Source: Deinococcales bacterium
GTDB lineage: Bacteria > Deinococcota > Deinococci > Deinococcales > JAAFIG01
Direction: 5' to 3'
Length of the DNA stretch: 64,000 nt
NCBI GenBank assembly: GCA_043778225.1
Contig: JAYWGM010000101.1
Location: forward strand, 64,001 to 128,000
A model generated the notes under the pieces. The model made no database searches, was not told the DNA's origin, and saw only the letters and a list, made by a program, of their open reading frames with translations. Positions 1 to 64,000 of this stretch are shown one piece after another. The position numbers were made by a program, and so were the translations under genes. Positions within the stretch are counted from its first letter, which is position 1, and each line of letters starts with the position of its first letter.

Positions 1-398
1 GCAATAATTGCAATTTCATCGGGGCTAAGGCGTTTATCATGCCACAAGGCTGGGGTTGAACCACCCGCCGTGACTGGCGGCATATATTTACTCTGTACGG
101 CTTTTTGGATGGTGCGTGCCATCGGGGTCACTTGGGCGGCGGTCTCGAGGGCAAAAGGTCCAATGTTGCCAGCGCTGTGGCAACCAACACAACTGCGATC
201 CAAAATTGGTTTGACGTGTTCGTAATACTTAGGGATATACGACAACAACGGCGGCTGGGCTTGCTGCATCAGCACGGGCTTACCATGCCCGTGCTTAGAG
301 CGGGTTTCGGATGCGCCATTGTTCTGGGTTGCACCCCAAACCACGCCGCTTGCAATCAGGGTTGCGACCAAGCCCAACGACCAAATTCTCGAGTTCAT
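1..398 (-). CDS. Secreted c-type cytochrome domain protein, 3' end outside the window
   Basis: Own translation MNSRIWSLGLVATL...KPILDRSCVGCHSAGNIGPF...KYMPP: signal peptide and CxxCH heme motif; TATACT 6 nt before the ATG. Not in the ORF track. Confidence 0.7.
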   Translation of the reverse strand, partial: MNSRIWSLGLVATLIASGVVWGATQNNGASETRSKHGHGKPVLMQQAQPPLLSYIPKYYEHVKPILDRSCVGCHSAGNIGPFALETAAQVTPMARTIQKAVQSKYMPPVTAGGSTPALWHDKRLSPDEIAII

Positions 399-459
399 GC
401 CCAAAGTATAGGGACTGGTTGTCAGGGCAATATGAAACCCGAGCCACAGTTGATGAGCT

Positions 460-1050
460 TTAGGCAGCTCGAGCCGCTTTGATAAAGGCTTTTATTTTGG
501 CGGTGTCCTTGATTCCGGGGGCGCTTTCTACGCCACTGGCAACATCCACGCCCCACGGGCGGAGTTGCTGGACTGCCAAACCAACATTTTCTGGGGTTAA
601 GCCGCCCGCCAGCAACCAACGCCGATTTTGTAGGCTCGAGGTGTCCATGCTTGCCCAATCAAAAACTGCTCCAGAACCAGCCTCGAGACCATCAAGAATC
701 AGGGTTTGGGCTGGTGGAATAACCATTCCAGCTTGATACCCAACCGCTCGAATGACTGGAAAATGCGCCTCGAGACTTGCTACAAAATCATCAGTTTCGT
801 GTCCGTGTAATTGCACCGCGCTGAGTTGCACCAGCCGAGCCGTGTGCAAAATTTCCTCGAGTGAAACATTTCTAAAAACGCCAATTCTCGAGACCAGCCC
901 ACTGACTTGGCTCGAGATTCGCGCCGCGTTGACTGGCAAAATATAACGCTTAGAACTTGGTACAAAATTAAAAGCGATCGCATCCGCGCCGGCTTCTTCG
1001 CACACTAAGGCATCCTCGAGTCGGGTGATGCCACATATTTTAATTCGCAT
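460..1050 (-). CDS. trpF: Phosphoribosylanthranilate isomerase
   Basis: MRIKICGIT, VQLHG, LAGGLTPENV, GVDVASGVE motifs. Confidence 0.95.
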   Translation of the reverse strand: MRIKICGITRLEDALVCEEAGADAIAFNFVPSSKRYILPVNAARISSQVSGLVSRIGVFRNVSLEEILHTARLVQLSAVQLHGHETDDFVASLEAHFPVIRAVGYQAGMVIPPAQTLILDGLEAGSGAVFDWASMDTSSLQNRRWLLAGGLTPENVGLAVQQLRPWGVDVASGVESAPGIKDTAKIKAFIKAARAA

Positions 1051-1060
1051 GGGTTTTAGT

Positions 1061-2299
1061 CTACCGTTTCATTTGTTGCAGTGGCGAATTCCTGATTGCC
1101 CACAAGGCTGGGAGTAGCGCAAACACCAAGGCGACTGGAATGACAATTGCCACCCGCAAAATATCCTCGAGTTTTGGCGACATTCTGGGCAAGGTCACAG
1201 CCGTCTGAAGCTCGAGCCATTGTTGGGCAAGGCTGGTTGCCAAGTAAGCCAAGGCTAAACCCAACAGCACCCCAAGCAGGGTAATAACCAGTGCCTCGAG
1301 AAAGACCAAGACCACAACTTGGCTTTTGCTTGCCCCAATAGCGCGTAAAACTGCCAAGTTGCGCTGCATGGTTTGACTGGCACTGAGGGTGTTAATCGCA
1401 ATCGTTAAAATTGCCAAAAATAAAGCCAACCAAATAATCAGGGTATAGGCTTCTTGCCCTTGCCCCATAAAACTAAACAATTGCCCAATCACTTGACCGG
1501 GAAAAACCCCCTGTGCCAATTGCCCTTGATTCAGTTCGTTTGCCAGTTGGTAGACATAGCCAAGTCGGGTGGGTGTCCAAAGAATTGCCGTGACCTCTTT
1601 GTCGCCTTCAGTGTGTTCGCCTTGGTGGTCTTGGTCTAGGGCGGTTGTTTCCAATGCCTCTTCTTCTTCGTGCAAATGCCAGACCGCCTCGAGTGGCACA
1701 AAAATCCCTCGGTCGCCAGCCGCACCGCTTGGCTCGAGAATACCAACCACCTTAAATTTATCGTCGTGTTCCTCTGGTTCAAGGGTCGGCGTTACACCAT
1801 GCTGGCTTTTGAAGGTATCGCCAATGTTTAAGCCACTGATTTTAGCAGCCTGTGCGCCAAGCACCGCATCGAATTCATCCTCAAAAACTGTCCCTCGAGC
1901 CAAACGGTACAACGCGGCTTGGGTCTGGGAAGGTCGTAGCTCAAAGAAATCTTTGTTTGTACCCAAAATAGGAAAGCCGTTGTAATTGTCGCCAAAGGCA
2001 AGTGGAATGGCTTTCTTGGTGCGTGGGTCTTGCTGAAGTTTTTCAAAAATGCTGTACGGGATATTGCCAAGTGGTGCTTCTTGTAAAAAAATCGTATTTA
2101 AGACCGCTTGGCTTTGACTGCCTTTGGCGGTAATCAATAAATCAAAACTGTTGGCAGCCCGAATTACACCCTCACGGAAGCTCGAGAGCAGCAACGGCAC
2201 AGCCAAACCCATCAGCGCCGCGACGGCAATTGCCAGCACCGTCAGGCTATTGGCGGCGGCTCGAGTCCGCAGATTGCGCCAAAGCAGCCAGCCTGTCAT
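1061..2299 (-). CDS. MacB/FtsX-type ABC permease with His/Glu-rich loops
   Basis: N-terminal TM, large extracytoplasmic domain, AVLRAIGA motif, three C-terminal TMs; loops EEHDD and HLHEEEE...DHQGEH. Confidence 0.85.
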   Translation of the reverse strand: MTGWLLWRNLRTRAAANSLTVLAIAVAALMGLAVPLLLSSFREGVIRAANSFDLLITAKGSQSQAVLNTIFLQEAPLGNIPYSIFEKLQQDPRTKKAIPLAFGDNYNGFPILGTNKDFFELRPSQTQAALYRLARGTVFEDEFDAVLGAQAAKISGLNIGDTFKSQHGVTPTLEPEEHDDKFKVVGILEPSGAAGDRGIFVPLEAVWHLHEEEEALETTALDQDHQGEHTEGDKEVTAILWTPTRLGYVYQLANELNQGQLAQGVFPGQVIGQLFSFMGQGQEAYTLIIWLALFLAILTIAINTLSASQTMQRNLAVLRAIGASKSQVVVLVFLEALVITLLGVLLGLALAYLATSLAQQWLELQTAVTLPRMSPKLEDILRVAIVIPVALVFALLPALWAIRNSPLQQMKR

Positions 2300-3486: not shown

Positions 3487-5244
3487 TTACTTGGCTTCGC
3501 GCAGTGGGTCTACACCAAGGGCTTTGACGATGCCAAAGAAAACTTCGGTGTTGTCAATGCTGCCCTTAAAGTGTTGGCTGCCAGGACCCCACGCAAAGAG
3601 TGGAATTGGGTCAACGCTGTGCGGACCACTGTTTCCACCAATGTTACCACCAGTTAAAACGCCACCAGCATTGGCTGGGTTTGGAACAAGGGTTGTGCCT
3701 TGGGCAGCCACCGCAACAAATGGTTTGTCGCCGACCAAGAAATTAGCAAAGTGGGCTGGGGCTGCGCCGTAACCAATGGCTAAACCAATATCGGTTCGTG
3801 CCAATGGCAAACCATTGTTGTCTCGAGCATTGTGGTAGGTCGGAAAGCCGTATTGTTCGTACAAACCAACACCAGCAGCTGTACCTGTGGGGCTACCTGC
3901 ACCCGCAGCTGTGTTGTATGTACCAAAGGTGCTGTTGGTGTGGGCGTGGTCGGCAGTCGTTAGAATCAGGGTGTCATTGCGCTTTTTTGCCCATTCTTTG
4001 GCTTTGCCAACCGCAACATCCATTTCGATGGCATCCCAAGTGGCGCGTTGCCAATCGAGGGCGTGTTGCAAGACATCGGAGTTGCTGCCTTCAACCACAA
4101 GCATAAATCCATTTGGGTGCAGTGCCTCGAGACTTTCGATGGCTTTGTTGGTCATGTTCCAGAGCAAAGGTTGGTCGTTAAATGCACCAAGCACGTCTGG
4201 GTTCTTAAATTGGGCGCGGTCAAGGTAGGCGTTCATCCAAGCCAACTGAAACAGACCAAGCACTTTACCCGGTTTGGTTGCCTCGAGTTCTTTGGCAGTG
4301 CTGGCAAATTGGTAGCCGGCTTTTTGGAACTCACCAATCATGTCGCGCTCGTTTTTACGGCGTGAACCTTTTGTGGCTTTAGGAATAAAGTCTTGGCTAC
4401 CGCCACCCATAATCACACTTGGACGAGCGCCAGAATCGAACATTTGTTCGACAATTTCGCTGTAGTTGCCACGGCGACGGGTATGGGCTAACCAACCGGC
4501 TGGGGTAGCATCCGACAAGTAGCTGGTGGTGACCAAACCAAAGCCATAATCGCGGGTGCGCTTGAGGATTTCAAAAAGGTGTTCTTGCTTAGGGTCATCA
4601 AATTGGTCAGCAGTGTTATCTGGGTAAGAACCCAAACCGTTGTTGCTGGCTTTATGACCAGTGCTGAAAGCACTGGCGCTGTTGGCGCTGTCGGTCACTA
4701 ATCCATCTAAACCACTGGTGTGAACAGTGGCAACGCTATCGGCTTTTTCCATGTTCAGAAAGTCGCGTGGTTTGCCATTTTCGATGCCGTGCATGACGAT
4801 ACGAGCCGCCGTCACGGTATTCCAGCCCATGCCGTCGCCAACAAAAACAATCACATTTTTAGGGCGCTTACCCGATGCCATGCCGCGCACCGATTCGTAG
4901 TTGGCTTGGCGTACAAAAACACCCGAGTCGTCTACACCACGGGCGATAACCTCGACTTTACCAGTGGTTTTAAGCATCACATCGCGCACCATAAAGTTTT
5001 GAACTCCGGCTGCACCCGCCGACATCTCGAGTTTCTTACCAAAAACTTGCTCTGCATTGCGTCCGTTGACCGTGATTGCCACTTCACGGGCTGTGCCTTT
5101 TAATTCCGACAACTCGACCCGAAAATCAAACTTTGCGCCAGCCAAAAACTTTGCACCTTGCACCGGCAGAATCGTGACCTTTGCGGCTTCAACGCCACTG
5201 GCGAGCAGGGCTGTTCCAAGAATTCCAAAAACTATTTTTTTCAT
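3487..5244 (-). CDS. phoA: Alkaline phosphatase, PhoA family, with N-terminal accessory domain
   Basis: VIVFVGDGMG, TDSANSA nucleophile Ser, DATPA, TADH motifs; GGAGG RBS before ATG at 5244. Confidence 0.9.
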   Translation of the reverse strand: MKKIVFGILGTALLASGVEAAKVTILPVQGAKFLAGAKFDFRVELSELKGTAREVAITVNGRNAEQVFGKKLEMSAGAAGVQNFMVRDVMLKTTGKVEVIARGVDDSGVFVRQANYESVRGMASGKRPKNVIVFVGDGMGWNTVTAARIVMHGIENGKPRDFLNMEKADSVATVHTSGLDGLVTDSANSASAFSTGHKASNNGLGSYPDNTADQFDDPKQEHLFEILKRTRDYGFGLVTTSYLSDATPAGWLAHTRRRGNYSEIVEQMFDSGARPSVIMGGGSQDFIPKATKGSRRKNERDMIGEFQKAGYQFASTAKELEATKPGKVLGLFQLAWMNAYLDRAQFKNPDVLGAFNDQPLLWNMTNKAIESLEALHPNGFMLVVEGSNSDVLQHALDWQRATWDAIEMDVAVGKAKEWAKKRNDTLILTTADHAHTNSTFGTYNTAAGAGSPTGTAAGVGLYEQYGFPTYHNARDNNGLPLARTDIGLAIGYGAAPAHFANFLVGDKPFVAVAAQGTTLVPNPANAGGVLTGGNIGGNSGPHSVDPIPLFAWGPGSQHFKGSIDNTEVFFGIVKALGVDPLREAK

Positions 5245-5276
5245 GTTGCCTCCGAGCGCTGAGCCTAAGCGCACGA

Positions 5277-5293
5277 TGTCAGGCAATCGTCAG
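5277..5293 (-). promoter_or_regulatory. Pho-box-like direct repeat upstream of phoA
   Basis: TGTCAGgcaatCGTCAG on the + strand, 11-bp period. Confidence 0.55.
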
Positions 5294-5317
5294 GAAACCA
5301 CGTTATAGACAGCTTAG

Positions 5318-5349
5318 TTTAATGATAATGAAAAACTATTATCATTAAA
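5318..5349. promoter_or_regulatory. Fur/Zur-like inverted repeat between phoA and phoX
   Basis: TTTAATGATAAT-8nt-ATTATCATTAAA, perfect 12-bp arms. Confidence 0.5.
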
Positions 5350-5451
5350 AACAAGCTCGAGACTCAAGAAAGCAACAATAGACCTGAAACTCGGCTGACA
5401 ATTGCGCTGTCTAATGATAAAGGATTCTCAATTGTGACACAAGGAGCATTT

Positions 5452-7416
5452 ATGAAACTGATGTTGGATACTCAAGATTTCGACACCTCGGGCAATCGTA
5501 CTGGCGCAACCTGTCACTGGAAATGCGGCGACGCTTGCGCCACCCCAGTGCTGAACCAATCCGAAAATATCTACAGCCGCGACATCATCGAACAAGCCAT
5601 TGACCGCCGCAGCATCTTAAAAGGTGGCTTTGCTTCGCTGATGATGCTGTCCGGAGCCTCGAGCCTGCTGCCAGCCGCCGCCCAAGGTGGCAATCTGGGT
5701 TTTAGCCCAATTAAGTTGTCCACCGAAGACCGCACCATTTTGCCGCAGGGTTACGAAGCCAATGTCGTGATTCGTTGGGGCGACCCAATCAGCCGTGGTG
5801 CAAAGCGTTTTGATGTGAACAATTTCGATGCCAAAACCCAAGAAAATAGCTTTGGTTACAACTGCGATTATGTCTCATTTTTGCCCTTGCCGGGCTACCA
5901 GACCAAGCGCTCAAACCAAGCCCTTTTGTGGACCAACCACGAGTACACCAATCCAGAACTGATGTTCCGTGGTTATGCGGCTGGCAAAGCGACCAAAGAA
6001 CAAGTGGATGTTGAATTGGCAGCCCACGGTGGCACAGTGGTTCAGGTTTTCCGCGATACTTCGGGCAACATCGAATACCTGCCAGTCTCGAGGTACAACC
6101 GCCGTATTACCGCCAATACCCCAATGGAAATTACGGGTCCTGCGGCTGGACATCCCTTGTTGCAAACCCGTGCCGACCCAACTGGCAAGCGTGTTTTGGG
6201 AATGCTCAATAACTGCGCTGGTGGTACAACCCCGTGGGGAACTATTTTAACTGCCGAAGAAAACTTTAACCAATACTTTGCTTACAACAACAACGTCAAG
6301 GATGCCTCCATCAAAGCCTTACACGCCCGTTATGGTGTGACGGGCGGCGCATCTGGGCGCGTTTGGGAAAATCATTACGAGCGCTTTAACTTAGAAGCCA
6401 ACCCGAACGAGCCATTTCGCTTTGGCTATATTGTCGAGATTGACCCTTACGACCCAAACATGACCCCAAAAAAGCGCACTGCTTTGGGGCGCTTTAAGCA
6501 CGAAGGCGCAGAATCCAGCCTTGCCAATGATGGTCGTGTGGTGATGTACTCGGGCGACGACGAACGCTTTGACTATATGTACAAGTTTGTCACCAAGGGT
6601 AAATTTAATCCCACCAACCGCGCTGCTAATCTGGATTTGCTCGACGAGGGTACGCTTTATGTGGCTCGAGTCAACGCTGACGGTACAGGCGAATGGATGC
6701 CGCTCGTCGTGGGCAATGGCAAACTGACTGCCGAGAATGGTTTTGCAACCCAAGCCGACATCTGCATTAAAACCCGCCAAGCGGCTGATTTACTTGGTGC
6801 GACCAAAATGGATAGACCAGAAGATTTCGAGCGCAACCCTGTGACTGGCGCGGTTTACTGCGTGCTGACCAATAACTCCAACCGCACTGCTGCCCAGATT
6901 GATGCTGCCAATCCTCGAGCCAGCAACCGCGATGGTCATATCATCGAGCTTCTCGAAGACGGCAACGATGCCGCCGCCACCAAATTTAAGTGGAGCATCT
7001 TTTTGGTTTGCGGTAATCCAAGCGACCCAACCACCTTTTTTGCTGGTTTCCCCAAAGACAAGGTTTCGCCAGTCGGCACACCGGATAACATTTCCTTTGA
7101 CAACAAAGGCAATATGTGGATTGCCACCGACGGTATGGAAAACAGCAACGTTAAAGCCCACGACGGCGTTTTTGCAGTCCCTACCACAGGCGCAAACCGT
7201 GGTCAGGTTCAACAATTTATGAGTACCGTCAAGGGTGCAGAAGTCTGCGGACCGATTTTTACCCCAGACAACCGCAATTTCTTTGCTGCAATTCAACACC
7301 CCGGCGAAGGCGGCACTGTCGATAAGCCAGTCTCCTTATTCCCAGACGGCGTTGGTGTACCACGTCCAAGTGTGATGTCGATCAAGAAAACCGATGGCGG
7401 TATCATCGGTACATAA
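5452..7416 (+). CDS. phoX: PhoX-family phosphatase, Tat-exported
   Basis: DRRSILKG Tat motif; NHEY, NCAGG.TPWGT.LTAEEN, GRFKHE, MDRPED, PDN, IQHPG; AGGAG RBS. Confidence 0.93.
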   Translation: MKLMLDTQDFDTSGNRTGATCHWKCGDACATPVLNQSENIYSRDIIEQAIDRRSILKGGFASLMMLSGASSLLPAAAQGGNLGFSPIKLSTEDRTILPQGYEANVVIRWGDPISRGAKRFDVNNFDAKTQENSFGYNCDYVSFLPLPGYQTKRSNQALLWTNHEYTNPELMFRGYAAGKATKEQVDVELAAHGGTVVQVFRDTSGNIEYLPVSRYNRRITANTPMEITGPAAGHPLLQTRADPTGKRVLGMLNNCAGGTTPWGTILTAEENFNQYFAYNNNVKDASIKALHARYGVTGGASGRVWENHYERFNLEANPNEPFRFGYIVEIDPYDPNMTPKKRTALGRFKHEGAESSLANDGRVVMYSGDDERFDYMYKFVTKGKFNPTNRAANLDLLDEGTLYVARVNADGTGEWMPLVVGNGKLTAENGFATQADICIKTRQAADLLGATKMDRPEDFERNPVTGAVYCVLTNNSNRTAAQIDAANPRASNRDGHIIELLEDGNDAAATKFKWSIFLVCGNPSDPTTFFAGFPKDKVSPVGTPDNISFDNKGNMWIATDGMENSNVKAHDGVFAVPTTGANRGQVQQFMSTVKGAEVCGPIFTPDNRNFFAAIQHPGEGGTVDKPVSLFPDGVGVPRPSVMSIKKTDGGIIGT

Positions 7417-31915: not shown

Positions 31916-33268
31916 ATGAAGAATTTGCGGTTATTGGCAGCATTTGGCATCGGTGCGCTGGCGGTTGGGGCAATGTTTGCTTCGGCGCAGACAGGTCGTA
32001 CCAAGGTCACTTGGTTTGTGGGTGTAGGAACGGGTGGTCAACCCGACCAAATCGAAGCCGAAAAAGCGGCGGTGGCTCGTTATAACAAAGCCCAAGACAA
32101 AATCGAAATCAACCTCGAGATTGTCGAATACAACTCGGCTCGAGATAACCTCTCGGCGCGGATTGCCGCTGGCAACGCCCCAGACATTGTTGGACCAGTC
32201 GGTACACAAGGCGCAAACTGGTTCAAAGGACAATTTGTTGACCTCGACCCTTATGTCGCTAAATTTAAGCCAGACCTCAAAGGCATTGATGAAGGGCTGC
32301 TTAAATTCTACAAGGAATCACAGGGCGGCGAAGGTCTGCCTTACGCAGTTTACCCAAGTTTCTTCTTTTACAACAAAGCCCTCTTTAAGGAATCAAAACT
32401 GCCAGACTTGCCAACCAAAGTTGGCGAAAAATACCGTGGTCGCACTTGGGATTGGAATGCCGTTCGTCAGCTAGGGATGGAACTGACTTTTGACAGCAAA
32501 GGCAACAGCGCTGTTTCAAAAGACTTTGATTCTAAAAGCATCGAGACTTACGGCTTTGTCAACCAATGGAACTTAGGTATTACCTCGATGGGAACCGCCT
32601 TTAAGCCAGCCAATGTCTTCCAGAACGGCAAAGCTGTAATCGATCCAGAATGGGTCAATGCGATTCGCTACTACCACAACGCCATCTGGAAAGATAAATT
32701 CATGCCAAGCCAAGCTGCCATGGACACCGATTTACTCGGACGCGGCAATGCCTTTAACTCTGGTAACGTCGCCATGGCTTGGACACACCTCTGGTACACC
32801 TGCTGCTTAGACCCAGCTGGAACAGGCAAAGTCAAAGATTGGGGCGTTGGTGTGATGCCAAGCTACAAAGGCAAGACCATCGCTAAACTCCATGCCGATA
32901 CCTTCCGCATCATGAAAGGCAGCAAAGTTAAAGAAGAAGCCTTCCAAGCAATGTGGTGGATTATGAACCAAAAAGACCTCTTGGTGACTTATGGTGCTTT
33001 CCCAGCCAACGAGAATCTCCAAGACGATTACATCGCCGCCGTCAACAAAAAGTATGCCCCTGTTAAAATCAACTGGAATGTTGTTAAAGATATGCTCAAG
33101 TACACCGACACCCCAAGCCACGAACAGTATTACCCTAACTTCACTAAAGTGGACGACATCTTTGCAAAACTTGCCACCAAAGTGCTGACCCAACCGACCT
33201 TAAATATCTCCAAAGAAGTCTCGGATACGCAAAAAGAAATCCAACGCGCTTTTGACGAAAAGAAATAA
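31916..33268 (+). CDS. Carbohydrate ABC transporter solute-binding protein
   Basis: Signal peptide, IAAGNAPDI, GLPY...FFYNKALF, WDW motifs; strong RBS. Confidence 0.9.
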   Translation: MKNLRLLAAFGIGALAVGAMFASAQTGRTKVTWFVGVGTGGQPDQIEAEKAAVARYNKAQDKIEINLEIVEYNSARDNLSARIAAGNAPDIVGPVGTQGANWFKGQFVDLDPYVAKFKPDLKGIDEGLLKFYKESQGGEGLPYAVYPSFFFYNKALFKESKLPDLPTKVGEKYRGRTWDWNAVRQLGMELTFDSKGNSAVSKDFDSKSIETYGFVNQWNLGITSMGTAFKPANVFQNGKAVIDPEWVNAIRYYHNAIWKDKFMPSQAAMDTDLLGRGNAFNSGNVAMAWTHLWYTCCLDPAGTGKVKDWGVGVMPSYKGKTIAKLHADTFRIMKGSKVKEEAFQAMWWIMNQKDLLVTYGAFPANENLQDDYIAAVNKKYAPVKINWNVVKDMLKYTDTPSHEQYYPNFTKVDDIFAKLATKVLTQPTLNISKEVSDTQKEIQRAFDEKK

Positions 33269-33346
33269 CCTTCTCGCGCCTTTCTTCCTCCTCCGCCTCC
33301 GCGCTTTTAAGAGCGCGGAGGTCAATTCAAAAAATAGGACACCTGT

Positions 33347-34276
33347 ATGCTACTCAGTCAAAAAACAAAAAAACCTATCGGTATTGAACGCACTGACCAG
33401 CGTTGGGGTTGGCTTTTCTTAACACCTTGGCTGCTTGGCTTGCTGCTTTTTACAGCATTTCCAATGCTGTTTTCTTTATTTTTAGCCTTTACCAATTATA
33501 ATCTAGTGCCAGACGAACCAACCCGCTTTGTCGGCTTCAAAAACTGGGTGGTGATGGTTCAAGACCCACAAATGCAGAGTGCCTTTTTGAACACCCTCAA
33601 ATATATTGCCATTGTTGTGCCACTTTTAATCGTCAGCCCCTTGGTTTTAGCCTTGTTTTTGAATGCCAAACCACTTTGGCTTAAAGGTTTATTTATCACT
33701 CTATTTTTTCTACCCAACCTCATTCCGGGCGTGGTCACTGGTTTAATTTGGGCGGGTTCACTTTCACCAGATGGCACAGTCAATCGTTTCCTCAAAGGCT
33801 TTGGAATTACCCCGCCAGCTTGGTTGACCGAAGCGGCTTGGGTCATGCCAGCCATTGCAATTATTGGCTTATGGAGCATTGGTAACACCATTTTACAACT
33901 GATTGCCGCCTTAAAAAATGCCCCCAAAGAACTCTTTGAAGCCGCCACCATAGACGGGGCAAGTTCACTGACGATGTTTTTTAGAATCACCATTCCACTG
34001 ATGTCCTCGGTGCTGTTTTTTAATGTGATTACCGCCATTATTGGTGGCTTTCAGTATTTTGTGGTCAGTTTTTTACTTTTTAATGGTCAGGGCGGTCCAA
34101 ATGACGCGGGTATGTTTTTAATGCTGAAAATTTTTAAGGAAGCGATTACTTACCGCAACATGGGCTATGCCTCGGCAATGTCTTGGGCAATGCTGCTGAT
34201 TACTTTGTTGATTACCCAAGTGCTGTTTGCCATGGGTAAACGGTTTGTCTATTACGCTGGAGAGGAGCAAAAATGA
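33347..34276 (+). CDS. Carbohydrate ABC permease (MalF-like)
   Basis: EAATIDGA...FFRITIP, MGYASA. Confidence 0.92.
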   Translation: MLLSQKTKKPIGIERTDQRWGWLFLTPWLLGLLLFTAFPMLFSLFLAFTNYNLVPDEPTRFVGFKNWVVMVQDPQMQSAFLNTLKYIAIVVPLLIVSPLVLALFLNAKPLWLKGLFITLFFLPNLIPGVVTGLIWAGSLSPDGTVNRFLKGFGITPPAWLTEAAWVMPAIAIIGLWSIGNTILQLIAALKNAPKELFEAATIDGASSLTMFFRITIPLMSSVLFFNVITAIIGGFQYFVVSFLLFNGQGGPNDAGMFLMLKIFKEAITYRNMGYASAMSWAMLLITLLITQVLFAMGKRFVYYAGEEQK

Positions 34277-35352
34277 GTCTGGTTTTACCAAAAGTAAGTG
34301 TCCAAAGTGTTCAACGTGAAAATCAAAGGGCTTGGCGCTCGAGAATCGCGTCTTTGTTGATTACGATTTTGATTGCTTGGGTGGCATGGGTTTTTTTAAC
34401 GCCTTTTTATGAACAAATCAATGCCAGTTTTGGCGCACCATCTCGAGAACCCGGACAACCCTTTGGTCCTTATGTCGGTCAAGTTTTTAAGTACCAAGAC
34501 CAAGACCTAAAAATCTATAAAGTGCCAATCAATGGGGCTGTACAGCAATTGGCGTTGCTCGAGCCGGGGCGCAGTAGCAGTGTTTTTATTGACCCAAAAG
34601 ACCCAAGTGTTCCCATTACTTACGAAGGTTCATACCGTGCTTTAGAACGTTTGTGGACATTCAGTCCGCGTTTTGCCAATTATGCCGAAGCCTGGGATAA
34701 ATTACCCGGTGGGTTCTTTCGGGGTTTAAGCAACACCTTTATTATTGCTGGTTTAAGCACCTTGGGGGTTTTAATCAGCAGCACTTTTACGGCTTATGGG
34801 CTGGCTCGTTTCAATATGCCACACAAAGATTTCTTGCTCGGCTTGGTGACTTTAACACTGATGCTACCAACGGTCGTTTTATTTGTGCCACAGTATATTC
34901 TCTACTTTAAGATCGGCTGGGTTGGCACATGGCTACCGCTCATCGTACCATCGTTTTTTGGTAATGCTTACAGTATTTTTTTGCTGCGTCAGTTCTTCTT
35001 AGCCATTCCCAAAGAATTTGACGAAGCCGCCAAAGTGGACGGGGCAAACCCGTTGCAAATACTTTGGTTTATCTTGCTACCGCTTATTCGCCCTGCTTTA
35101 ATTGCAGTCGCTATTCTTAACTTTATTCTTGTCTGGAACGATTTTTTCTATCCAACGCTGTACTTGGCTGGAAAAACCGACCTGATGCCTTTATCGGTCT
35201 TAATTCGGATGTTTAGCTCGAGTTACGGCAGCAGCACCCCACATCTGATTTCGGCAGCCGCAATCATTGCCACGATTGTACCGATGGTCTTATTTTTAGT
35301 CGCTCAACGCCCTTTTATTCGTGCCATCACGATGCCGGGGTTGGACAAATGA
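34273..35352 (+). CDS. Carbohydrate ABC permease (MalG-like)
   Basis: LLRQFF.IPKEFDEAAKVDGA, WNDF..P. Confidence 0.92.
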   Translation: MSLVLPKVSVQSVQRENQRAWRSRIASLLITILIAWVAWVFLTPFYEQINASFGAPSREPGQPFGPYVGQVFKYQDQDLKIYKVPINGAVQQLALLEPGRSSSVFIDPKDPSVPITYEGSYRALERLWTFSPRFANYAEAWDKLPGGFFRGLSNTFIIAGLSTLGVLISSTFTAYGLARFNMPHKDFLLGLVTLTLMLPTVVLFVPQYILYFKIGWVGTWLPLIVPSFFGNAYSIFLLRQFFLAIPKEFDEAAKVDGANPLQILWFILLPLIRPALIAVAILNFILVWNDFFYPTLYLAGKTDLMPLSVLIRMFSSSYGSSTPHLISAAAIIATIVPMVLFLVAQRPFIRAITMPGLDK

Positions 35353-41161: not shown

Positions 41162-41572
41162 ATGTGTCGGTATGCGTTCAAAAATTACAAAAATCATTAT
41201 GCCTGTTTTGAATGCCGTAAAGCCTTCAAGCAGCCTTTTCTTATTGAAAAAATGACTCAAAAAATACCACAGGGAGTAGCACGAACAACAACTCGAGTTA
41301 TTCAGCACCAGACTGCAACCTGTCCACAATGCCACAAGCCAATGAACAGTATGGGGTTTGATTTCAAAGCACCCAAGCGGAGCGACAAAAAACAATGGGA
41401 GAAAGTAAAGCAACTCTTTAATGCGGGTTTTACTTATGTTTCATGTGGATGTGACGGACCTGGAACTCGTCCTCAGCATTTGCGTGAAGTGTCAGATTTT
41501 ATTCGTGAGCGTCGAAGATTAAGCGTTGGACAAAGATTACTTGAACAGTTCTCGAGGTATGGACGAGAATGA
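41162..41572 (+). CDS. Cys-rich zinc-ribbon hypothetical protein
   Basis: CFECRK...CPQC...GFDFKAPK...CGCDGPG; ATGA overlap with the methyltransferase. Confidence 0.7.
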   Translation: MCRYAFKNYKNHYACFECRKAFKQPFLIEKMTQKIPQGVARTTTRVIQHQTATCPQCHKPMNSMGFDFKAPKRSDKKQWEKVKQLFNAGFTYVSCGCDGPGTRPQHLREVSDFIRERRRLSVGQRLLEQFSRYGRE

Positions 41573-42495
41573 ATCAACTATTCCACACTGATGGTATCCA
41601 AGCCATTAAGCATCTGCCAGAATCTTCGGTGCATCTTATTCTCAGCGATATTCCTTACGGCATTGGCGCAGAAGATTGGGATGTACTGCACGAAAATACC
41701 AATTCGGCTTACCTTGGCTCGAGTCCAGCCCAGCAAACGGCAGGTTCGGTTTTTAAGAGCCGTGGCAAACCGATTAACGGTTGGTCAGAAGCTGACCGCG
41801 AGATTCCATTGCAGTATTACAAATGGTGTCAAACGTGGGCTGACCAGTGGTTGCGCGTCTTAAAACCGGGTGGTAGTGCAATTGTTTTTGCAGGTCGGCG
41901 TTATTCGCACCGATGTATTGCTGCCCTTGAAGATGTCGGCTTTAGTTTTAAGGATATGCTTTCGTGGCTTAAACCTCGAGCCGCCCACCGAGCGCAACGC
42001 CTGAGTCTGGTTTATGAACGTCGCACCAACCAAGAAGCCGCCGATGAATTTTTTGGCTGGCGTTTGGGCAATCTTCGTCCAACTTTTGAGCCGGTTTTGT
42101 GGTTTACAAAACCTTATAAAATCGGTACAACGGTGGCTGATAATGTTTTGCATCATGGTGTTGGTGCGTACAACGAAACCGCTTTTTTGAAATATAAAGA
42201 TTCGCCAGACAATGTTTTGCGAAGTGGCTTTGCGCCCAATGAAACTGGTTTTCACCCGACCCAAAAACCAGTCTTGCTGATGCAAGCCCTGATTGAACTG
42301 ACTACCCAAAAGGGACATGTGATTTTAGACCCATTTTGCGGCAGTGGTACAACTTTATTGGCGGCAAAACATCTGGAACGCAACTACCTTGGTTTTGAAA
42401 TTAACGAAAAATATGCCGCCATTGCCCAAGCTCGACTCGAGGACGATTTATTTGACCTCTTTGCCGAGCCAACTTTGCTTACTGCATCCATATGA
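41569..42495 (+). CDS. Beta-class amino DNA methyltransferase, M.HindIII-like, no adjacent endonuclease
   Basis: SDIPYG motif IV followed by HPTQKP and DPFCGSGTT; WD.LH.NTNSA, RGKP.NGWSEAD and HRAQR segments recalled from M.HindIII. Confidence 0.85.
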   Translation: MNQLFHTDGIQAIKHLPESSVHLILSDIPYGIGAEDWDVLHENTNSAYLGSSPAQQTAGSVFKSRGKPINGWSEADREIPLQYYKWCQTWADQWLRVLKPGGSAIVFAGRRYSHRCIAALEDVGFSFKDMLSWLKPRAAHRAQRLSLVYERRTNQEAADEFFGWRLGNLRPTFEPVLWFTKPYKIGTTVADNVLHHGVGAYNETAFLKYKDSPDNVLRSGFAPNETGFHPTQKPVLLMQALIELTTQKGHVILDPFCGSGTTLLAAKHLERNYLGFEINEKYAAIAQARLEDDLFDLFAEPTLLTASI

Positions 42496-46451: not shown

Positions 46452-46498
46452 TATAAATCAAGTCTAGAATCTTTTTTTGAAATAGTACAATGAAGGCT

Positions 46499-47518
46499 AT
46501 GAGCAACAAATTACATTTGCTTTTGCTCGAGTGGTACGACACCCATGCTCGAGTCTTGCCGTGGCGACAAACCAAAGCTGGTTCTCGAGAACCTTACCAA
46601 GTTTGGCTTTCAGAAATTTTATTACAACAGACCCAAGTTTCTCGAGCCAGCAGTTATTACGAGTCTTTTCTCGAGGCTTTTCCGACCCTGCAAGACCTTG
46701 CGGCTGCGCCACTCGATACTGTCCTAAAACTCTGGGAGGGGGCTGGATACTATGCCCGCGCCAGAAGCCTGCACCGCGCCGCGCAAATCATGGCAGAAAG
46801 TGGCACACCGAGTGCTTATCTGGCTTGGCTCGAATTGCCAGGCGTTGGGCGCTATACGGCTGCTGCAATTGCCAGTTTAAGCACCAACCAAGCCGTGGCG
46901 GCGGTGGATGGCAATGTCCGCCGAGTATTGGCACGGCTCGAGAACAACGCTAACCCGTCTGAAGATTGGCTCTGGGCAACCGCCACAAGCTATCTTGAAA
47001 AAGACCGTGCTGGCGCATGGAACGAAGCCCTGATTGAACTTGGGGCAACGATTTGTAAACCAAAAAAACCGCTTTGTCTCGAATGTCCAATTGCAAAACA
47101 CTGTTTGGCTTTTCGTGCCAATACCATGCTGTCTGTGCCAGCCCCCAAAGCTCGAGCCAAAGTCAAACTGGTCAAGGCGGTGGCTTTATTGCTGCATTTT
47201 GGGGGCGAAGTCTACCTCGAGTTACGACCAAAAAACGGTTTGCTGGGTGGCTTATACGGTGTACCACTCGAGTCAATCAGCACCACCCTCGAGGCTGCGC
47301 TCGAGTTGCTACTCAAGCGCTACACACCCTTACACTCCTTGGGTGGGTGGTGCGGGGAGGTATCGCACACCATGACCCACCGCCAGTTTGAAATTTCGGT
47401 CTTTGCGCTCGAGTCTAAACGCCCCGATTTAGTGCGACCGACAACTCGAGCCATCGCTAACCTCGACCGTAAAATTCTTAAACTGCTCGAGTCTGGCTTA
47501 CCCGTCACCTCTTCTTGA
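46499..47518 (+). CDS. mutY: A/G-specific adenine glycosylase
   Basis: SEILLQQT, GYYARAR, LPGVGRYTA, VDGNV, CKPKKPLCLECP..KHC Fe-S motif. Confidence 0.95.
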   Translation: MSNKLHLLLLEWYDTHARVLPWRQTKAGSREPYQVWLSEILLQQTQVSRASSYYESFLEAFPTLQDLAAAPLDTVLKLWEGAGYYARARSLHRAAQIMAESGTPSAYLAWLELPGVGRYTAAAIASLSTNQAVAAVDGNVRRVLARLENNANPSEDWLWATATSYLEKDRAGAWNEALIELGATICKPKKPLCLECPIAKHCLAFRANTMLSVPAPKARAKVKLVKAVALLLHFGGEVYLELRPKNGLLGGLYGVPLESISTTLEAALELLLKRYTPLHSLGGWCGEVSHTMTHRQFEISVFALESKRPDLVRPTTRAIANLDRKILKLLESGLPVTSS

Positions 47519-48385: not shown

Positions 48386-49513
48386 ATGGCGCAAAGCGTG
48401 ACAATTGTGGACTTATTGCGGACGATGGTAGCGCGAGGCGTTTCTGATGTGCATTTGCAAGTTGGTTCACCACCAATGGGACGGGTTCATGGCACATTGA
48501 CGGCTTTTCACAGCGAAGCCCTAAAGCCCGACCAGACCAAAATGATTGGACGTACCCTTTTAACAACCGAACAATGGGAAGAATTTGAGTACCGTCATGA
48601 ACTCGACTTTGCCTATCTTGTGCCTAATGTGGCGCGTTTCCGTTGCAATATCTTTCGTCAGCGCGGCAGTATTGGCTTGGTCATGCGGGTTATCCCCGAT
48701 GCGATTGCCAGCTTTGAGAGTCTGGGGCTACCAGCCGATTTGATGGAAGAATTCTGCGGCAAAGAACGCGGTATTATTTTGACCACAGGTCCGACCGGTT
48801 CGGGCAAAAGTACCACCATGGCAGCCATTGTCGACAAAATTAACCGCACCTATGCTCATAACATCATCACCATCGAAGACCCAATCGAATACTTGCACCG
48901 CAATCAGCGCAGCCTTGTGGTGCAGCGTGAAGTTGGCTCAGATACCTCGGATTTTAAGAGCGCCCTGAAATATGCCATGCGTCAAGACCCCGATGTGATT
49001 ATGATTGGCGAGATGCGCGACAAAGAAACCGTTGAAGCCGCGATTACCGCCGCCCAGACGGGTCACTTGGTCTTGAGTACGCTGCACACCCAAGACGCGA
49101 TTCGCAGTGTCAACCGTATTATTGACTTTTTCCCGCCCCATGAGCGCGATCAAATCAGGATTTTGTTTGCCGAATCTTTGGTCGGTATTTTATCACAGCG
49201 CTTATTGCCTCGAGCCGATGGTTCTGGACGGGTGCTGGCATTGGAAGTGATGATTAACACGCCACTTATCCGCGACTACATCAAAGACGAAAACAAAACC
49301 CCAGAAATTAAAGATGCGATGCGCGAAGACAACAACCGTGGCATGACCACCTTCGATCAACATTTGGTACAGTTGTATTTCTCGGGCATGATTTCTTTTG
49401 AGGAAGGTTTGTCGGCTGCCACCAGTCCAGACGAGTACAAACTGATGATTACCCAAGGTTCAACCGCCCACAATTCATTCACTTCTCAAGGCAACGCTCA
49501 CGCCCCATCCTAG
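48386..49513 (+). CDS. pilT: PilT/PilU-family retraction ATPase
   Basis: GPTGSGKSTT, TIEDPIE, AMRQDPD, GEMRD, TGHLVLSTLH. Confidence 0.9.
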   Translation: MAQSVTIVDLLRTMVARGVSDVHLQVGSPPMGRVHGTLTAFHSEALKPDQTKMIGRTLLTTEQWEEFEYRHELDFAYLVPNVARFRCNIFRQRGSIGLVMRVIPDAIASFESLGLPADLMEEFCGKERGIILTTGPTGSGKSTTMAAIVDKINRTYAHNIITIEDPIEYLHRNQRSLVVQREVGSDTSDFKSALKYAMRQDPDVIMIGEMRDKETVEAAITAAQTGHLVLSTLHTQDAIRSVNRIIDFFPPHERDQIRILFAESLVGILSQRLLPRADGSGRVLALEVMINTPLIRDYIKDENKTPEIKDAMREDNNRGMTTFDQHLVQLYFSGMISFEEGLSAATSPDEYKLMITQGSTAHNSFTSQGNAHAPS

Positions 49514-50790: not shown

Positions 50791-50791
50791 C

Positions 50792-61722: not shown

Positions 61723-61732
61723 GGAATAAACC

Positions 61733-62440
61733 ATGAAAAAACTCTTGACCTGCTGCATTTTGCTGTTTGGATTGGCGATTGCCCAAAATCGCAGTCTTGA
61801 AGCTGCCAGAGCGCTTTACACCAAGGGCGACTTCAAGGGGGCAGCGTTGCTTGCCCAAGACCTCGAGACCTCAGAAGCCCAAGCCTTTGCTGCCAAAGCC
61901 AACAGTGTCTATGCCAGTACCCAAGCCGAAAACAAACAAGAAATTATTTATGTCCAATCCGAAGAATACGCCCGTAAAGCGATTGCGCTAAACACCAAAA
62001 ACCCCGATGCCTATTTTGAAGTGGCTCGAGCCTTGGGGCGTTTAAGCCAATTGCGCGGCATTGCCGCAGCCCTGACCCAAGGCTTAGGCACACAAATTCG
62101 TGAACAACTCGAAAATGCTCTGCAACTCGAGCCTAAACACACCAACAGCTTGGTGGCTTTTGGAATCTGGCACGCCGAAATTAGTGCTAAAGGGGTCGGC
62201 TGGTTGTACGGCGCAAGCCCCGAAGCCGCAATTGCTTATTTTGAACGCGGCAGTAAACTCGAGCCAAAGCTGATTTTACCCAAAGTCGAATATGCCAGAG
62301 GCTTACTTTTACTCGATAAGAAAAAACACCTCGAGAAAGCCATTGATTTACTCGAGCAAGCGGTCAAACTGACCCCCAACGATGCCGCCGACCGCCTAGA
62401 CTTAGCCAGAGCCAAACGCGATTTAGAGGCTTTGCGCTAA
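61733..62440 (+). CDS. Secreted TPR-like protein
   Basis: Signal peptide and TPR-like helical repeats. Confidence 0.75.
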   Translation: MKKLLTCCILLFGLAIAQNRSLEAARALYTKGDFKGAALLAQDLETSEAQAFAAKANSVYASTQAENKQEIIYVQSEEYARKAIALNTKNPDAYFEVARALGRLSQLRGIAAALTQGLGTQIREQLENALQLEPKHTNSLVAFGIWHAEISAKGVGWLYGASPEAAIAYFERGSKLEPKLILPKVEYARGLLLLDKKKHLEKAIDLLEQAVKLTPNDAADRLDLARAKRDLEALR

Positions 62441-63175
62441 AAACCCGCGCAATTTTTGCAGATAACCACGGTCTGTAAAATCCAAGTGCAATGGCGTGAC
62501 CGAAATAAACCCTTGCTCGAGGGCAGTGTAGTCTGAATCAGCTTCGGAGTCGCCAGTTGCCACACCACCAATCCAGTAATAATTTTTGCCGTCGGGGTCT
62601 TGGCGCTCTGCTACGTTGTCTTCGTAGTGGTGTGTTCCTTGCACCGTGACGCGCACCCCTTTTGGAATGCCGCTTGGGATATTGACGTTCAGCACTGTTT
62701 TATTAGGCAGCCCATGCTCGAGAATTTGCTGGGCGATGACTCGAGCAAAAGCTGCGCTATGGGTGTAATCCATGGCGTTGGCAAAGGACTGACTAAACGC
62801 AATGCTCGGAATACCAATGTGTGTCCCCTCGATGGCACAGGCAAATGTACCAGAGTGGGTTAAATCGTAGCCAAGATTAGGTCCATAGTTAATCCCACTG
62901 ACCACCAAGTCTGGTTTACCAAGCCGATGCACCCCCATGACCACACAATCGGTTGGTGTGCCATCCACACGGTAGGCTTTGATATTTGGGTGCAGTCCCT
63001 CGAGAACCGTGGGCTTAAAACGCAATGGACGGCGAATCGTAATCCCATGCCCAACGCCACTTTGCTCAAATTCTGGAGCGACAATAAAAACATCGCCGAG
63101 GTCAGCTAAGGCATTGGCAAGCGCCAAAAGCCCGTGGCTATAGATACCATCGTCGTTGGCGACCAGTATTTTCAT
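62423..63175 (-). CDS. surE: 5'/3'-nucleotidase SurE
   Basis: ILVANDDG, GTPTDCV, SGIN.G.N, SGT. Confidence 0.95.
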   Translation of the reverse strand: MKILVANDDGIYSHGLLALANALADLGDVFIVAPEFEQSGVGHGITIRRPLRFKPTVLEGLHPNIKAYRVDGTPTDCVVMGVHRLGKPDLVVSGINYGPNLGYDLTHSGTFACAIEGTHIGIPSIAFSQSFANAMDYTHSAAFARVIAQQILEHGLPNKTVLNVNIPSGIPKGVRVTVQGTHHYEDNVAERQDPDGKNYYWIGGVATGDSEADSDYTALEQGFISVTPLHLDFTDRGYLQKLRGFLAQSL

Positions 63176-63176
63176 C

Positions 63177-64000
63177 TTAAAACTCGACCACAAAAGCACT
63201 TTCAATAAAATCCTGCGCCCGTATTGTCTCGAGAATCGTGTCCGATGGACGAGCATCCAAACCGAGCGCAAAAAGCGCTTTACCACCCGGGGCATCGCGC
63301 CCAAGCTGCATACTGGCAATGTTGACATTGGCTTCGCCGAGTAGGCTGCCGATTTTACCAACCACGCCCGGCTGGTCAAAGTTGGTAGCAATTAAGGCAA
63401 AGCCCTCTGGGGCAATCTCGAGGCGGTAATTGCGAATTCTGGTAATTCTGGGCTGACGACCAAAGCACGTTCCCGATAAACTGCGAACCCGTTTGCCATC
63501 GGACATTGTGACTTTAATTTCGTTGGCATAATCTTCGGATTCGTCGGTGTGCTTGATGCTCACGGCAATGCCCTGTTCTCGAGCCAGCGCCCGAGCATTG
63601 ACAAAGTTCGGGGTTTCGCTGGTGACCCGTTTTAAGTAGCCAATCAAAACACTTGAAAAAACCGGCTCGAGTTCGCTTGGGTTTGCGCCACCCATGCTTA
63701 AACTTGGGAATTTGCCGCCAAATTCAACTTCGATTTCGGTGGCTGTGCCAATTTCAAGTTGCGCCAGCATTATCCCCATCCGCTCGGCTAAAATCATATA
63801 CGGACCAAGTTTTTCGAGCGCACTGGCATCAAGTTTTGGGGCATTGATTGCCCCATGCGAATAATCGCCCAACAGGGCTGCACAGACCCGCTCGAGAATT
63901 TCATTGCCAACGCGGTCTTGGGCTTCGGTTGTGTTTGCCCCCAAATGCGCCGTTAAAACCACATCGTCGCGCCCAAGCAGTGGATTATCTAAACTGGGTG
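63177..64000 (-). CDS. serA: D-3-phosphoglycerate dehydrogenase, 5' end outside the window
   Basis: HLGANT.EAQ, ASB domain, ACT domain (DQPGVVG..G..LG...VNIA.M). Confidence 0.92.
   Translation of the reverse strand, partial: PSLDNPLLGRDDVVLTAHLGANTTEAQDRVGNEILERVCAALLGDYSHGAINAPKLDASALEKLGPYMILAERMGIMLAQLEIGTATEIEVEFGGKFPSLSMGGANPSELEPVFSSVLIGYLKRVTSETPNFVNARALAREQGIAVSIKHTDESEDYANEIKVTMSDGKRVRSLSGTCFGRQPRITRIRNYRLEIAPEGFALIATNFDQPGVVGKIGSLLGEANVNIASMQLGRDAPGGKALFALGLDARPSDTILETIRAQDFIESAFVVEF

Follow-up and report, generated by a model that had tools for sequence, protein, structure and literature searches.

The subject of this report is a word rather than a gene: the palindromic hexamer CTCGAG, as it occurs in a 64,000-nucleotide stretch of Deinococcales DNA (the window, by which we always mean the whole stretch) and in the genome, family and phylum to which that stretch belongs. 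The window carries 390 copies, or 6.1 per kb, against a mean of 7.27 (standard deviation 2.78, maximum 15) in 100 shuffles that preserve dinucleotides, none of which reaches 390. How does a genome come to hold one six-letter word so often, and what might be reading it? A preliminary description of the window, made from its letters, had proposed that CTCGAG is a highly iterated palindrome (HIP); the over-representation that it claimed is confirmed (390 against 7.3), and its count of 23 copies in positions 1–3000 is exact. The word, and the genes of the window that bear on its distribution, are these:

1..64000, no strand: CTCGAG, 390 copies over the whole window, in all three frames, in genes of both strands and in spacers; the genome-wide density is equal
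463..1050, minus strand: trpF (PRAI) gene, 8 CTCGAG in 588 bp (13.6 per kb), 4, 1 and 3 by frame
3490..7413: phoA-type and phoX genes, 2.2 and 2.0 CTCGAG per kb, with few Leu-Glu dipeptides
32139..34338: 2,199 bp without a CTCGAG, the longest such gap in the window and the eighth longest in the genome, covering the sugar-binding protein gene and the first permease gene (Pfam SBP_bac_1, BPD_transp_1), at a guanine-plus-cytosine (GC) content of 0.44–0.48
41569..42495, plus strand: N6_N4 DNA methyltransferase gene (N6_N4_Mtase), solitary-looking, 3 CTCGAG, between a histidine phosphatase gene and a CN-hydrolase gene
46490..47515, plus strand: MutY-like gene, 14 CTCGAG (13.6 per kb, jointly with trpF the densest of the window); 9 of its 12 Leu-Glu are written CTCGAG
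48386..49510, plus strand: PilT-like type IV pilus ATPase gene, 1 CTCGAG (0.9 per kb) and 1 Leu-Glu

The genes that had been singled out as poor in the word are indeed so, with phoA at 2.2, phoX at 2.0, the two sugar permeases at 0.0 and 3.7 and pilT at 0.9 per kb (the sugar-binding protein gene has 1.5), where the window mean is 6.1; what sets these genes apart is simply that Leu-Glu, like the other contexts that permit CTCGAG, is scarce in them.

The source genome, which we call G000 (4.03 Mb in 107 contigs, the longest 154 kb; GC 48.7%; 89% complete; the window is positions 64001–128000 of its contig C101), holds 24,877 copies, one per 162 bp. CTCGAG is its top-ranked hexamer, and the next independent word, CAAAAA, has 5,325 copies. 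The ratio of copies observed to copies expected (O/E) is 26.7 from base composition, 47.5 from an order-1 Markov model and 15.1 from an order-2 model; against a background from which the motif itself has been masked, the excess is 29-fold at order 0 and 73-fold at order 2 (24,877 against 339). A HIP should exceed its Markov expectation at least about 15-fold, and CTCGAG in this genome does. The reverse word, GAGCTC, has 24 copies. No base exceeds a frequency of 0.31 at positions −10 to −1 or +1 to +10, and since the flanks thus carry almost no information, the unit is the bare hexamer. Contigs from two public sequencing runs are identical to the window over the pieces listed, and a third run holds relatives that are less than 90% alike.

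Could the proteins account for the word? With long open reading frames (ORFs; 3,494 of them, spanning 89% of the genome) as gene proxies, CTCGAG has one and the same density, 6.16 per kb, in coding and in fully intergenic DNA, and in the latter 2,772 copies stand against 87.2 expected (31.8-fold); the spacers of the window hold 53 fully intergenic copies in 7,236 bases (7.3 per kb), and only 20 of the 1,697 gene proxies of at least 900 bp are without the word. Genic copies fall in all frames, 13,045 in frame 0 (59%, where CTC GAG reads Leu-Glu), 4,462 in frame 1 and 4,627 in frame 2 (about 20% each). Five shuffles of synonymous codons within genes left 2,306–2,453 copies of the 22,134 observed, a loss of about 89%. 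The synonymous opportunities that are filled with CTCGAG amount to 69.2% for Leu-Glu (frame 0), 56.4% for [SPTA]-Arg-[VADEG] (frame 1) and 41.7% for x-Ser-[SR] (frame 2), where codon usage outside the word would lead one to expect about 2% (odds ratios 99, 50 and 36), and CTC makes up 75% of leucine codons before Glu and 9% before other residues. The pressure for CTCGAG acts at the level of DNA and overrides codon usage. The preliminary description, which had the word in all three frames and between genes, is borne out on both counts; it had also said what would overturn it, namely an excess fully explained by codon-pair usage and absent from intergenic DNA, and this refutation fails, because synonymous shuffling loses the word (about 2,400 copies against 22,134) and spacers are as dense as genes.

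The trait is that of a whole family. All 19 family genomes (5 genera) carry 4.3–6.8 CTCGAG per kb and almost no GAGCTC; they are of metagenome-assembled-genome (MAG) quality, 57–94% complete, and one of them (G013) is a single 5.1-Mb contig. In a survey of 364 genomes of Deinococcota (including one unpublished genome, G327, on which nothing rests), the members outside the family range from strong avoidance to 8.6 per kb. Genus g7 (111 genomes), which we take to be Deinococcus, avoids the word, with 0.01–0.36 per kb; genus g9, presumably Thermus, has it about as often as GAGCTC; the density is 3.6 per kb in genus g19 and 1.5–3.5 in several genera of families f2 and f5, and the three genomes of genus g23 stand at 8.6 (G156), 7.0 (G157) and 0.3 (G158). 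A milder excess, 2.4–2.9 per kb and 3- to 6-fold over GAGCTC, is found in Meiothermus ruber, M. chliarophilus and Marinithermus. Two metagenome scans were made for closer relatives, the first of which found none, while the second found one short relative and a contig, L200 (20.9 kb, GC 0.64, its aldolase 87% identical), in which CTCGAG reaches 5.3 per kb, GAGCTC is absent and palindromes are broadly avoided, as they are in G000. Because L200 is enriched at a GC of 0.64, the trait is not tied to a GC near 49%, that of G000: CTCGAG enrichment is a lineage trait independent of GC. The densest viral contigs (the best 25 of at least 80 loci) have a GC of at least 0.586, most with GAGCTC frequent too, and are uninformative on the phages of this family.

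The pressure has reached the proteins. Leu-Glu is the most over-represented dipeptide of G000, with an O/E of 2.33 (Glu-Leu stands at 0.97), so that the dipeptide has been roughly doubled. A comparison, with the CTCGAG-poor relatives sampled at 200 kb each, gives the following Leu-Glu O/E:

2.57: L200, the metagenome relative of GC 0.64
2.47: the window
1.31: G158, CTCGAG-poor, with a GC of 0.50 as in G000
1.12: G028, of genus g7, CTCGAG-poor

In lineages with the milder form of the excess (200-kb and 60-kb samples), 56–60% of Leu-Glu is written CTCGAG and the O/E is 1.43. Within one ortholog set, that of a single gene, the frame-0 copies of G000 stand mostly opposite LQ, LA, LR, VE and FD in less enriched relatives.

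Sites are conserved, and yet they move. When 20 kb of the window was compared with same-genus genomes (55.5 kb of aligned pairs, 76.6% identical in DNA), 204 of 326 aligned CTCGAG site-pairs were retained (62.6%, against 26.6% for all other hexamers), a figure whose pairs are not independent and which mixes inheritance with convergent re-creation; the same-genus genomes, only 67–85% identical in DNA, are too diverged to separate rates of gain and loss from equilibrium. Over a longer range, in the ortholog of a lyase-family gene (43416–44936) from five family genomes, the word occupies 38 positions, of which 24 are found in a single genome, 9 in two, 4 in three and 1 in four, and density is mostly kept despite this turnover between genera. 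(An outgroup comparison of the same gene was dropped, the outgroups being 33–40% identical and represented by two paralogs, so that the gene serves within the family only.) With equal density in genes and spacers, presence in 19 of 19 family genomes and retention of sites well above background, the proposal of a highly iterated palindrome stands. Restriction–modification (R-M) islets, made of genes that look recently acquired, have 0–2.7 CTCGAG per kb.

The copies are also spaced more evenly than at random: pairs closer than 20 bp occur at 0.32–0.53 of expectation, gaps of 40–160 bp at 1.15–1.25 and gaps of 320–1,280 bp at about 0.8, with a tail of 30 long gaps, and apart from the codon period of 3 no periodicity up to 400 bp was found in G000. 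As an observation in its own right, doublets of the form CTCGAG-N-CTCGAG (distance 7) number 123 in G000 against 30–53 at distances 8–11 (for example C20:38439 and C27:9961); they are unique loci with any middle base, and some lie in GC-rich stems with a run of T after them, in the manner of intrinsic terminators.

What kind of force could hold such a word? It had been suggested that a methyltransferase-linked repair bias maintains it, and depletion of one-mismatch variants had been proposed as the signature to look for. That depletion is absent. The 18 one-mismatch variants number 13,793 in G000, against 15,968 (order 0) or 9,141 (order 2, masked) expected, and 1,626 against 1,660 in intergenic DNA; the transition neighbours are mildly raised, at 1.3–2.0 of expectation, with TTCGAG and CTTGAG at 1.4–1.5 times expectation in the genome and 1.6–2.0 times in intergenic DNA. 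A profile search of G000 for Vsr gave no credible match (best expectation value, E, 0.7; 11.9 bits against a cut-off of 27). In a toy model, a Markov chain on the 4,096 hexamers with mutation of the Hasegawa–Kishino–Yano (HKY) type and a kappa of 2 or 4, ignoring coding constraint and the effects of neighbouring bases, Vsr-type corrections of T:G to C:G would by themselves reach a ceiling of 6.8–7.5-fold and drive the eligible neighbours towards zero, whereas a whole-word bias of 27 would give an enrichment of 26.8-fold with neighbours at 0.99, alike whether it acts on gains, on losses or on both. We have therefore set aside CTCGAG as a target of Vsr-type very-short-patch repair: there is no credible Vsr, the neighbours derived from T:G are not depleted, and the model ceiling is about 7-fold. 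As far as such a model can tell, the data fit a whole-word fixation bias with the exactness of a restriction enzyme, and not repair of the Vsr type. Of the suggested repair bias, then, little stands (neighbours undepleted, no credible Vsr, no methylase shared among the rich genomes sampled). CTCGAG carries N6-methyladenine (m6A) in three cultured relatives.

For those relatives, the single-molecule real-time (SMRT) sequencing survey of Blow et al. 2016 (PMC4752239, tables S3 and S4) gives type II m6A methylases that are active at CTCGAG, with no cognate nuclease listed there: 94.6% of sites are methylated in Marinithermus hydrothermalis, 94.1% in Meiothermus chliarophilus and 99.5% in M. ruber. 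For M. silvanus the supplementary tables of the same paper give five methylated motifs, CTCGAG not among them. Two genomes may be set side by side:

M. silvanus (G178): 9,077 CTCGAG, 644 GAGCTC, CTCGAG not methylated
M. ruber (G191): 7,570 CTCGAG, 1,239 GAGCTC, CTCGAG methylated

By these counts, methylation and enrichment are decoupled in both directions in the cultured relatives. In genus g9, 24 of 32 genomes have a methylase of the XhoI-linked type (described below), and the genus is not enriched.

DNA methylase genes number about 20 in G000, among them N6_N4 genes on contigs C79 and C41, three D12 genes and five C5 genes; one of the 20 or so lies in the window. The preliminary description had recognised no XhoI-type methyltransferase there; the window does hold the N6_N4 gene at 41569–42495, which matches the phylum's XhoI-linked methylases in pieces, at 24–44% identity, without being their ortholog, has no recognisable nuclease gene adjoining and has no ortholog that we could see in five other family genomes. 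Five Pfam methylase families were compared across G000, five family genomes of other species or genera, G156, G157, G158, G042 and G019, and among these genomes and families there is neither a universal methylase class nor an ortholog group common to all the CTCGAG-rich genomes: N6_N4 methylases are missing from the closed 5.1-Mb genome G013 and from G042, which lacks D12 methylases as well, and G010 is without a C5 methylase. No G000 methylase is a conserved orphan. A 650-aa enzyme on contig C65 (Eco57I + TaqI_C) was found in 3 of 41 relatives, and next after its gene comes a 264-aa ORF that belongs to no Pfam family and is likely a nuclease gene; a 501-aa methylase on C92 lies in an inserted two-gene islet adjoining a peptidase gene; three HsdM-like genes have HsdS and HsdR neighbours. 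(The HsdM-like methylases of about 500 aa were considered as hidden type II CTCGAG enzymes and rejected, for they have HsdS or HsdR neighbours and form a type I group, 41–69% identical.) The CTCGAG methylase gene of Marinithermus (Marky_0034) is likewise Eco57I + TaqI_C; a TaqI_C domain was found in 0 of 20 further Eco57I or N6_Mtase ORFs of the sampled genomes, and the one relative of the Marinithermus candidate in the genome collection is in an Anaerolineae MAG, at 55%. The best matches in G000 are 21–23% identical to Marky_0034 and Mrub_2385 and only 21–30% identical to the three CTCGAG methylase types recovered from the phylum, none of them an ortholog. Members of the phylum do methylate CTCGAG, but the data lend no support to one conserved methylase as the driver.

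Nor was a resident XhoI/PaeR7I-type R-M system found for which the word would be the target: none of the 19 family genomes showed the nuclease, and none the partner methylase. In G000, 89% complete as it is, the XhoI nuclease family (PF04555) has no match even at E ≤ 1. Elsewhere in the phylum it occurs in 7 of 364 genomes (0 of 125 in family f3), each with an adjoining methylase gene, which in 6 of the 7 is an N6_N4 methylase, the six being 62–79% identical to one another. Orthologs of this XhoI-linked methylase are present in 45 of 364 genomes, including the 24 of 32 in genus g9; the N6_N4 genes of G000 are 24–30% identical to it. In G031 an XhoI-family gene, broken by stop codons, adjoins a methylase like M.Mru1279II (49% identical to the M. 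ruber gene). The XhoI/PaeR7I-type systems (PF04555 plus a methylase), among them a predicted CTCGAG pair of Mycobacterium smegmatis (PMC7526240), share the recognition word, but a restriction target is normally avoided, as in genus g7, whereas here it is enriched.

Some further observations concern restriction and its genes. The g9 methylase orthologs (L192–L199, L280–L285) are 62–66% identical to the XhoI-linked methylase, and with an XhoI-family nuclease in 0 of 32 genomes there, the enzyme appears to be a widespread orphan in that genus. Genes for YhcG/DUF1016 PD-(D/E)XK nucleases lie repeatedly in or beside type I and II R-M sets (C15 and C65 of G000; G013, G011, G157), often near PIN or HicB toxin–antitoxin genes. 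Finally, almost every other palindromic hexamer is avoided in G000, 34 of 64 falling below 0.1 and 53 of 64 below 0.5 of composition expectation (median 0.077; GGCGCC has 3 copies, GACGTC 1 and GAGCTC 24), against a median of 0.82 for non-palindromic hexamers, 2% of which fall below 0.1, and a palindromic median of 0.81 in the CTCGAG-poor G158, whose GC is equal; this avoidance points to very heavy, long-standing restriction pressure in the family.

As for a reader, a DNA-binding, uptake or methylation-reading system is possible, much as had first been suggested, and two candidates were considered. Putative nucleases of the Uma2 family (PF05685) have 34 matches in G000 and 6–40 across the family, one of them in the window (16529–17182); counts are high in many enriched genera of f2 and f5, 0–3 in genus g7 and 0 in family f4, and in a set of 14 control genomes the matches were confined to a cyanobacterium, Thermus and Deinococcus. 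As a necessary reader Uma2 was rejected, for G042 (3.6 CTCGAG per kb, 96% complete) has no copy and G157 (7.0 per kb) has 3, while the unenriched g9 has 10–16. The competence protein ComEC was found in 13 of 14 genomes searched, G000 included. Directly upstream of the window's Uma2 gene, at about 16250–16530, lies a short repeat of about 130 + 70 bp, with many copies (72–96% identity) on other G000 contigs and in same-genus genomes; it looks like a small mobile or miniature element, and the public-run contigs join across a 77-bp piece of it (16379–16457).

Which known systems does this resemble? The closest are HIP1 (GCGATCGC) and the alternate HIPs of cyanobacteria, which are likewise short GC-containing palindromes over-represented tens of times (PMC4390886, PMC5861425, PMC13756078), lie inside and between genes, are conserved above background, belong to whole lineages, are scarcer in imported-looking DNA and in some members are linked to methylation. 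HIP1 is also reported to show a periodic density at 10–90 kb, and CTCGAG, at one per 160 bp, is several times denser than HIP1, which PMC5861425 puts at slightly over one per gene in some cyanobacteria. CTCGAG differs further in having six letters where HIP1 has eight, in belonging to another phylum, in a one-off pattern that is not biased to the outer positions and in that no conserved orphan methylase was found for it, whereas HIP1 has DmtA and DmtC. Thus over-representation, presence in and between frames and conservation are all found for CTCGAG, and a conserved word-specific methyltransferase was not found in the sampled genomes. A bioRxiv study of 2024 (10.1101/2024.09.10.611283) reportedly linked HIP1 to transformation and uptake. 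According to Rodriguez-Cruz et al. 2026 (PMC13756078), HIP1 raises transformation, an effect that depends on methylation, and has been put forward as a word for uptake.

Three other comparisons are useful. M.Mru1279II (M. ruber), M.Mch9957IV (M. chliarophilus) and M.Mhy14884I (Marinithermus hydrothermalis), as tabulated in PMC4752239, act on the same word in the same phylum, with a milder excess; the difference is that G000 matches the two genes recovered (Marky_0034, Mrub_2385) at 21–23%. The competence genes of G000 invite a second comparison, with uptake words. The uptake signal sequences (USS) of Pasteurellaceae and the DNA uptake sequences (DUS) of Neisseriaceae are 9–12 bp long, non-palindromic, with flanking preferences, and occur about once per kb. 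By analogy, CTCGAG would be like them an over-represented exact word spread by a whole-word bias (uptake followed by recombination), in coding DNA and at a cost to proteins; unlike them it has six letters, uninformative flanks and no known receptor, so that of the marks of an uptake sequence we find competence machinery (ComEC, and the PilT-like gene of the window) and no long word with a flanking consensus. Third, Chi and other oriented words stop RecBCD/AddAB, and Chi is asymmetric and strand-skewed. The analogy would lie in an over-represented word that marks a cell's own DNA for a DNA-processing machine, under weak selection at many sites; the differences are that CTCGAG is palindromic and that no such nuclease has been linked to it in G000.

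Full-text literature searches, whose coverage lies outside subscription journals, found no published report of CTCGAG abundance in Deinococcota. Neither CTCGAG nor Deinococc- appears in Elhai 2015 (PMC4390886) or in PMC13756078, and Meiothermus and Marinithermus go unmentioned in the main text of PMC4752239, as does any abundance of CTCGAG there.

We lean, tentatively and without great confidence, towards CTCGAG as a HIP-type "self" word, kept by selection or drive on the whole word and read by an exact-word reader, with methylation secondary. It would be a true highly iterated palindrome of this uncultured Deinococcales family, serving genome-wide and at the level of DNA. A fixation bias for the exact hexamer over every single-mutant neighbour, about 27-fold (in population-genetic notation a 4Nes of about 3.3), would hold roughly one copy per 160 bp, and its source might be selection or else a drive of the gene-conversion or uptake type. 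The reader would discriminate all six positions, as type II R-M enzymes do and Vsr-type deamination repair does not, and would seemingly be independent of any one conserved methyltransferase. It may act while the cell handles its own or kindred DNA (in uptake, in recombination or in stopping a nuclease), as is now proposed for HIP1, and the non-orthologous orphan N6-adenine methylases that cultured relatives direct at CTCGAG would then be secondary, either an accessory mark or a protection of thousands of sites from XhoI-type nucleases. We come to a "self" word with methylation secondary because drive by uptake or recombination, and the methylation-dependent boost that HIP1 is reported to give to transformation, are the only mechanisms with experimental precedent for such a bias; that fixation rather than mutation is biased, what kind of reader is involved and how it is tied to DNA exchange are what we infer.

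A good deal weighs on the other side. No reader protein was identified, and ComEC fails as a discriminator, being present also in the CTCGAG-poor G158, G020 and G022. Known uptake words are 9–12 bp long, non-palindromic and about ten times sparser, and to our knowledge Thermus and Deinococcus are reported to import DNA without sequence preference. At 6 per kb the marginal uptake value of one more site would be tiny for kilobase fragments, so that such a reader would have to act on a scale of 100–300 bp. Exactness over six bases is most typical of methylases and nucleases, and with three of four cultured Deinococcota methylating CTCGAG, methylation could be primary. The family genomes are incomplete (57–94%) and unrelated methylase families can share a specificity; the toy model has neither coding constraint nor neighbouring-base effects, and the conservation pairs are not independent.

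A broader version, which we hold to be doubtful, would make CTCGAG an ancient, methylation-independent "self" word of the Deinococcota at large, read by an exact-word DNA machine of an undescribed kind (it might halt a nuclease, say, or steer recombination or uptake, over 100–300 bp). Unrelated orphan CTCGAG methylases would have been captured repeatedly because a genome full of the word offers thousands of XhoI-type targets, and large lineages such as genus g7 would have purged it; at least three types of CTCGAG methylase exist in the phylum.

Suppose instead that the methyltransferase came first, in the manner of Elhai: an orphan methylase marks CTCGAG, and methylation-guided repair of mismatches or heteroduplexes restores imperfect copies, thereby creating and keeping the word. 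We think this unlikely, if worth taking seriously. The m6A at CTCGAG in Marinithermus hydrothermalis, M. chliarophilus and M. ruber, with no cognate nuclease in the tables of PMC4752239, speaks for it, as do recognition exact to six bases with uninformative flanks, the milder effect in the methylating lineages (56–60% of Leu-Glu as CTCGAG, O/E 1.43) and the sheer number of methylase genes in G000, about 20, among which the C65 enzyme shares the Eco57I + TaqI_C architecture of the Marinithermus one. But that enzyme occurs in no more than 3 of 41 relatives and has a likely nuclease gene next after its own, the HsdM-like genes of G013 are true type I subunits with HsdS neighbours, and no methylase ortholog is common to the CTCGAG-rich genomes sampled, of which G013, G010 and G042 lack whole classes. 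The best G000 matches to the three CTCGAG methylase types are 21–30% identical, M. silvanus is enriched like M. ruber without methylating the word, and 24 of 32 genomes of g9 have the methylase in an unenriched genus. Moreover, the one-off neighbours are not drained, and repair of transitions alone would fall short of 27-fold.

That CTCGAG is instead the site of a nucleoid-associated or chromosome-organising protein, selected for even coverage, in the structural role that Xu et al. 2018 propose for HIP1, seems to us quite unlikely. The scarcity of both close pairs (about 20 bp) and long gaps fits it, and so does the conservation of sites in and between genes, as reported for HIP1 in PMC5861425; yet there is no periodicity beyond the codon period up to 400 bp, no candidate protein was identified, and one-off sites show no partial enrichment beyond the transition halo of 1.3–2.0. 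Nucleoid proteins rarely discriminate all six bases.

A pure mutation bias, in which some process of replication or repair would frequently turn near-copies into CTCGAG while existing copies bring no benefit and enjoy no preference, is very improbable. Equal density in coding and non-coding DNA, turnover of positions between genera and the lower density of recently-acquired-looking genes (R-M islets, 0–2.7 per kb) speak for it. It would, however, have to work on all 18 neighbours at six positions, for which there is no known enzymology; those neighbours sit at background instead of being drained, a mutation process blind to context would not be expected to leave close pairs scarce, and with 34 of 64 palindromic hexamers below 0.1 of expectation this is not a general process that makes palindromes. 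The last alternative, a by-product of codon-pair or dipeptide usage or an artefact of assembly or binning, has in its favour that 59% of genic copies are in frame 0 as Leu-Glu, and is refuted by the 31.8-fold intergenic excess, the loss of about 89% on shuffling, the CTC share of 9% that becomes 75% before Glu, the 24 copies of GAGCTC, and the word's presence in 19 of 19 family genomes (the single-contig 5.1-Mb one included) and in two public runs that match the window over the pieces listed.

Why should any of this matter? HIP1 has been a puzzle for thirty years and confined to one phylum, and a second, independent and denser case in Deinococcota makes the phenomenon a general one. The phylum also supplies natural contrasts, in one genus with 8.6, 7.0 and 0.3 copies per kb (G156, G157, G158) and a large sister lineage that avoids the word; and since M. 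ruber methylates CTCGAG and M. silvanus does not, whether methylation is cause, accessory or consequence of an iterated palindrome can be tested at the bench. More practically, CTCGAG density can serve as a marker of imported DNA in these genomes, and it biases the codon, dipeptide and k-mer statistics on which binning and gene calling rely.

Two other genes of the window deserve a line for their own sake. At 12228–15806 a 1,192-aa fusion joins a CheB methylesterase, a CheR methyltransferase, PAS domains and a histidine kinase, and at 23839–27015 an ABC-type permease domain (BPD_transp_1) and an Acyl_transf_3 acyltransferase domain share one ORF of 1,058 aa.

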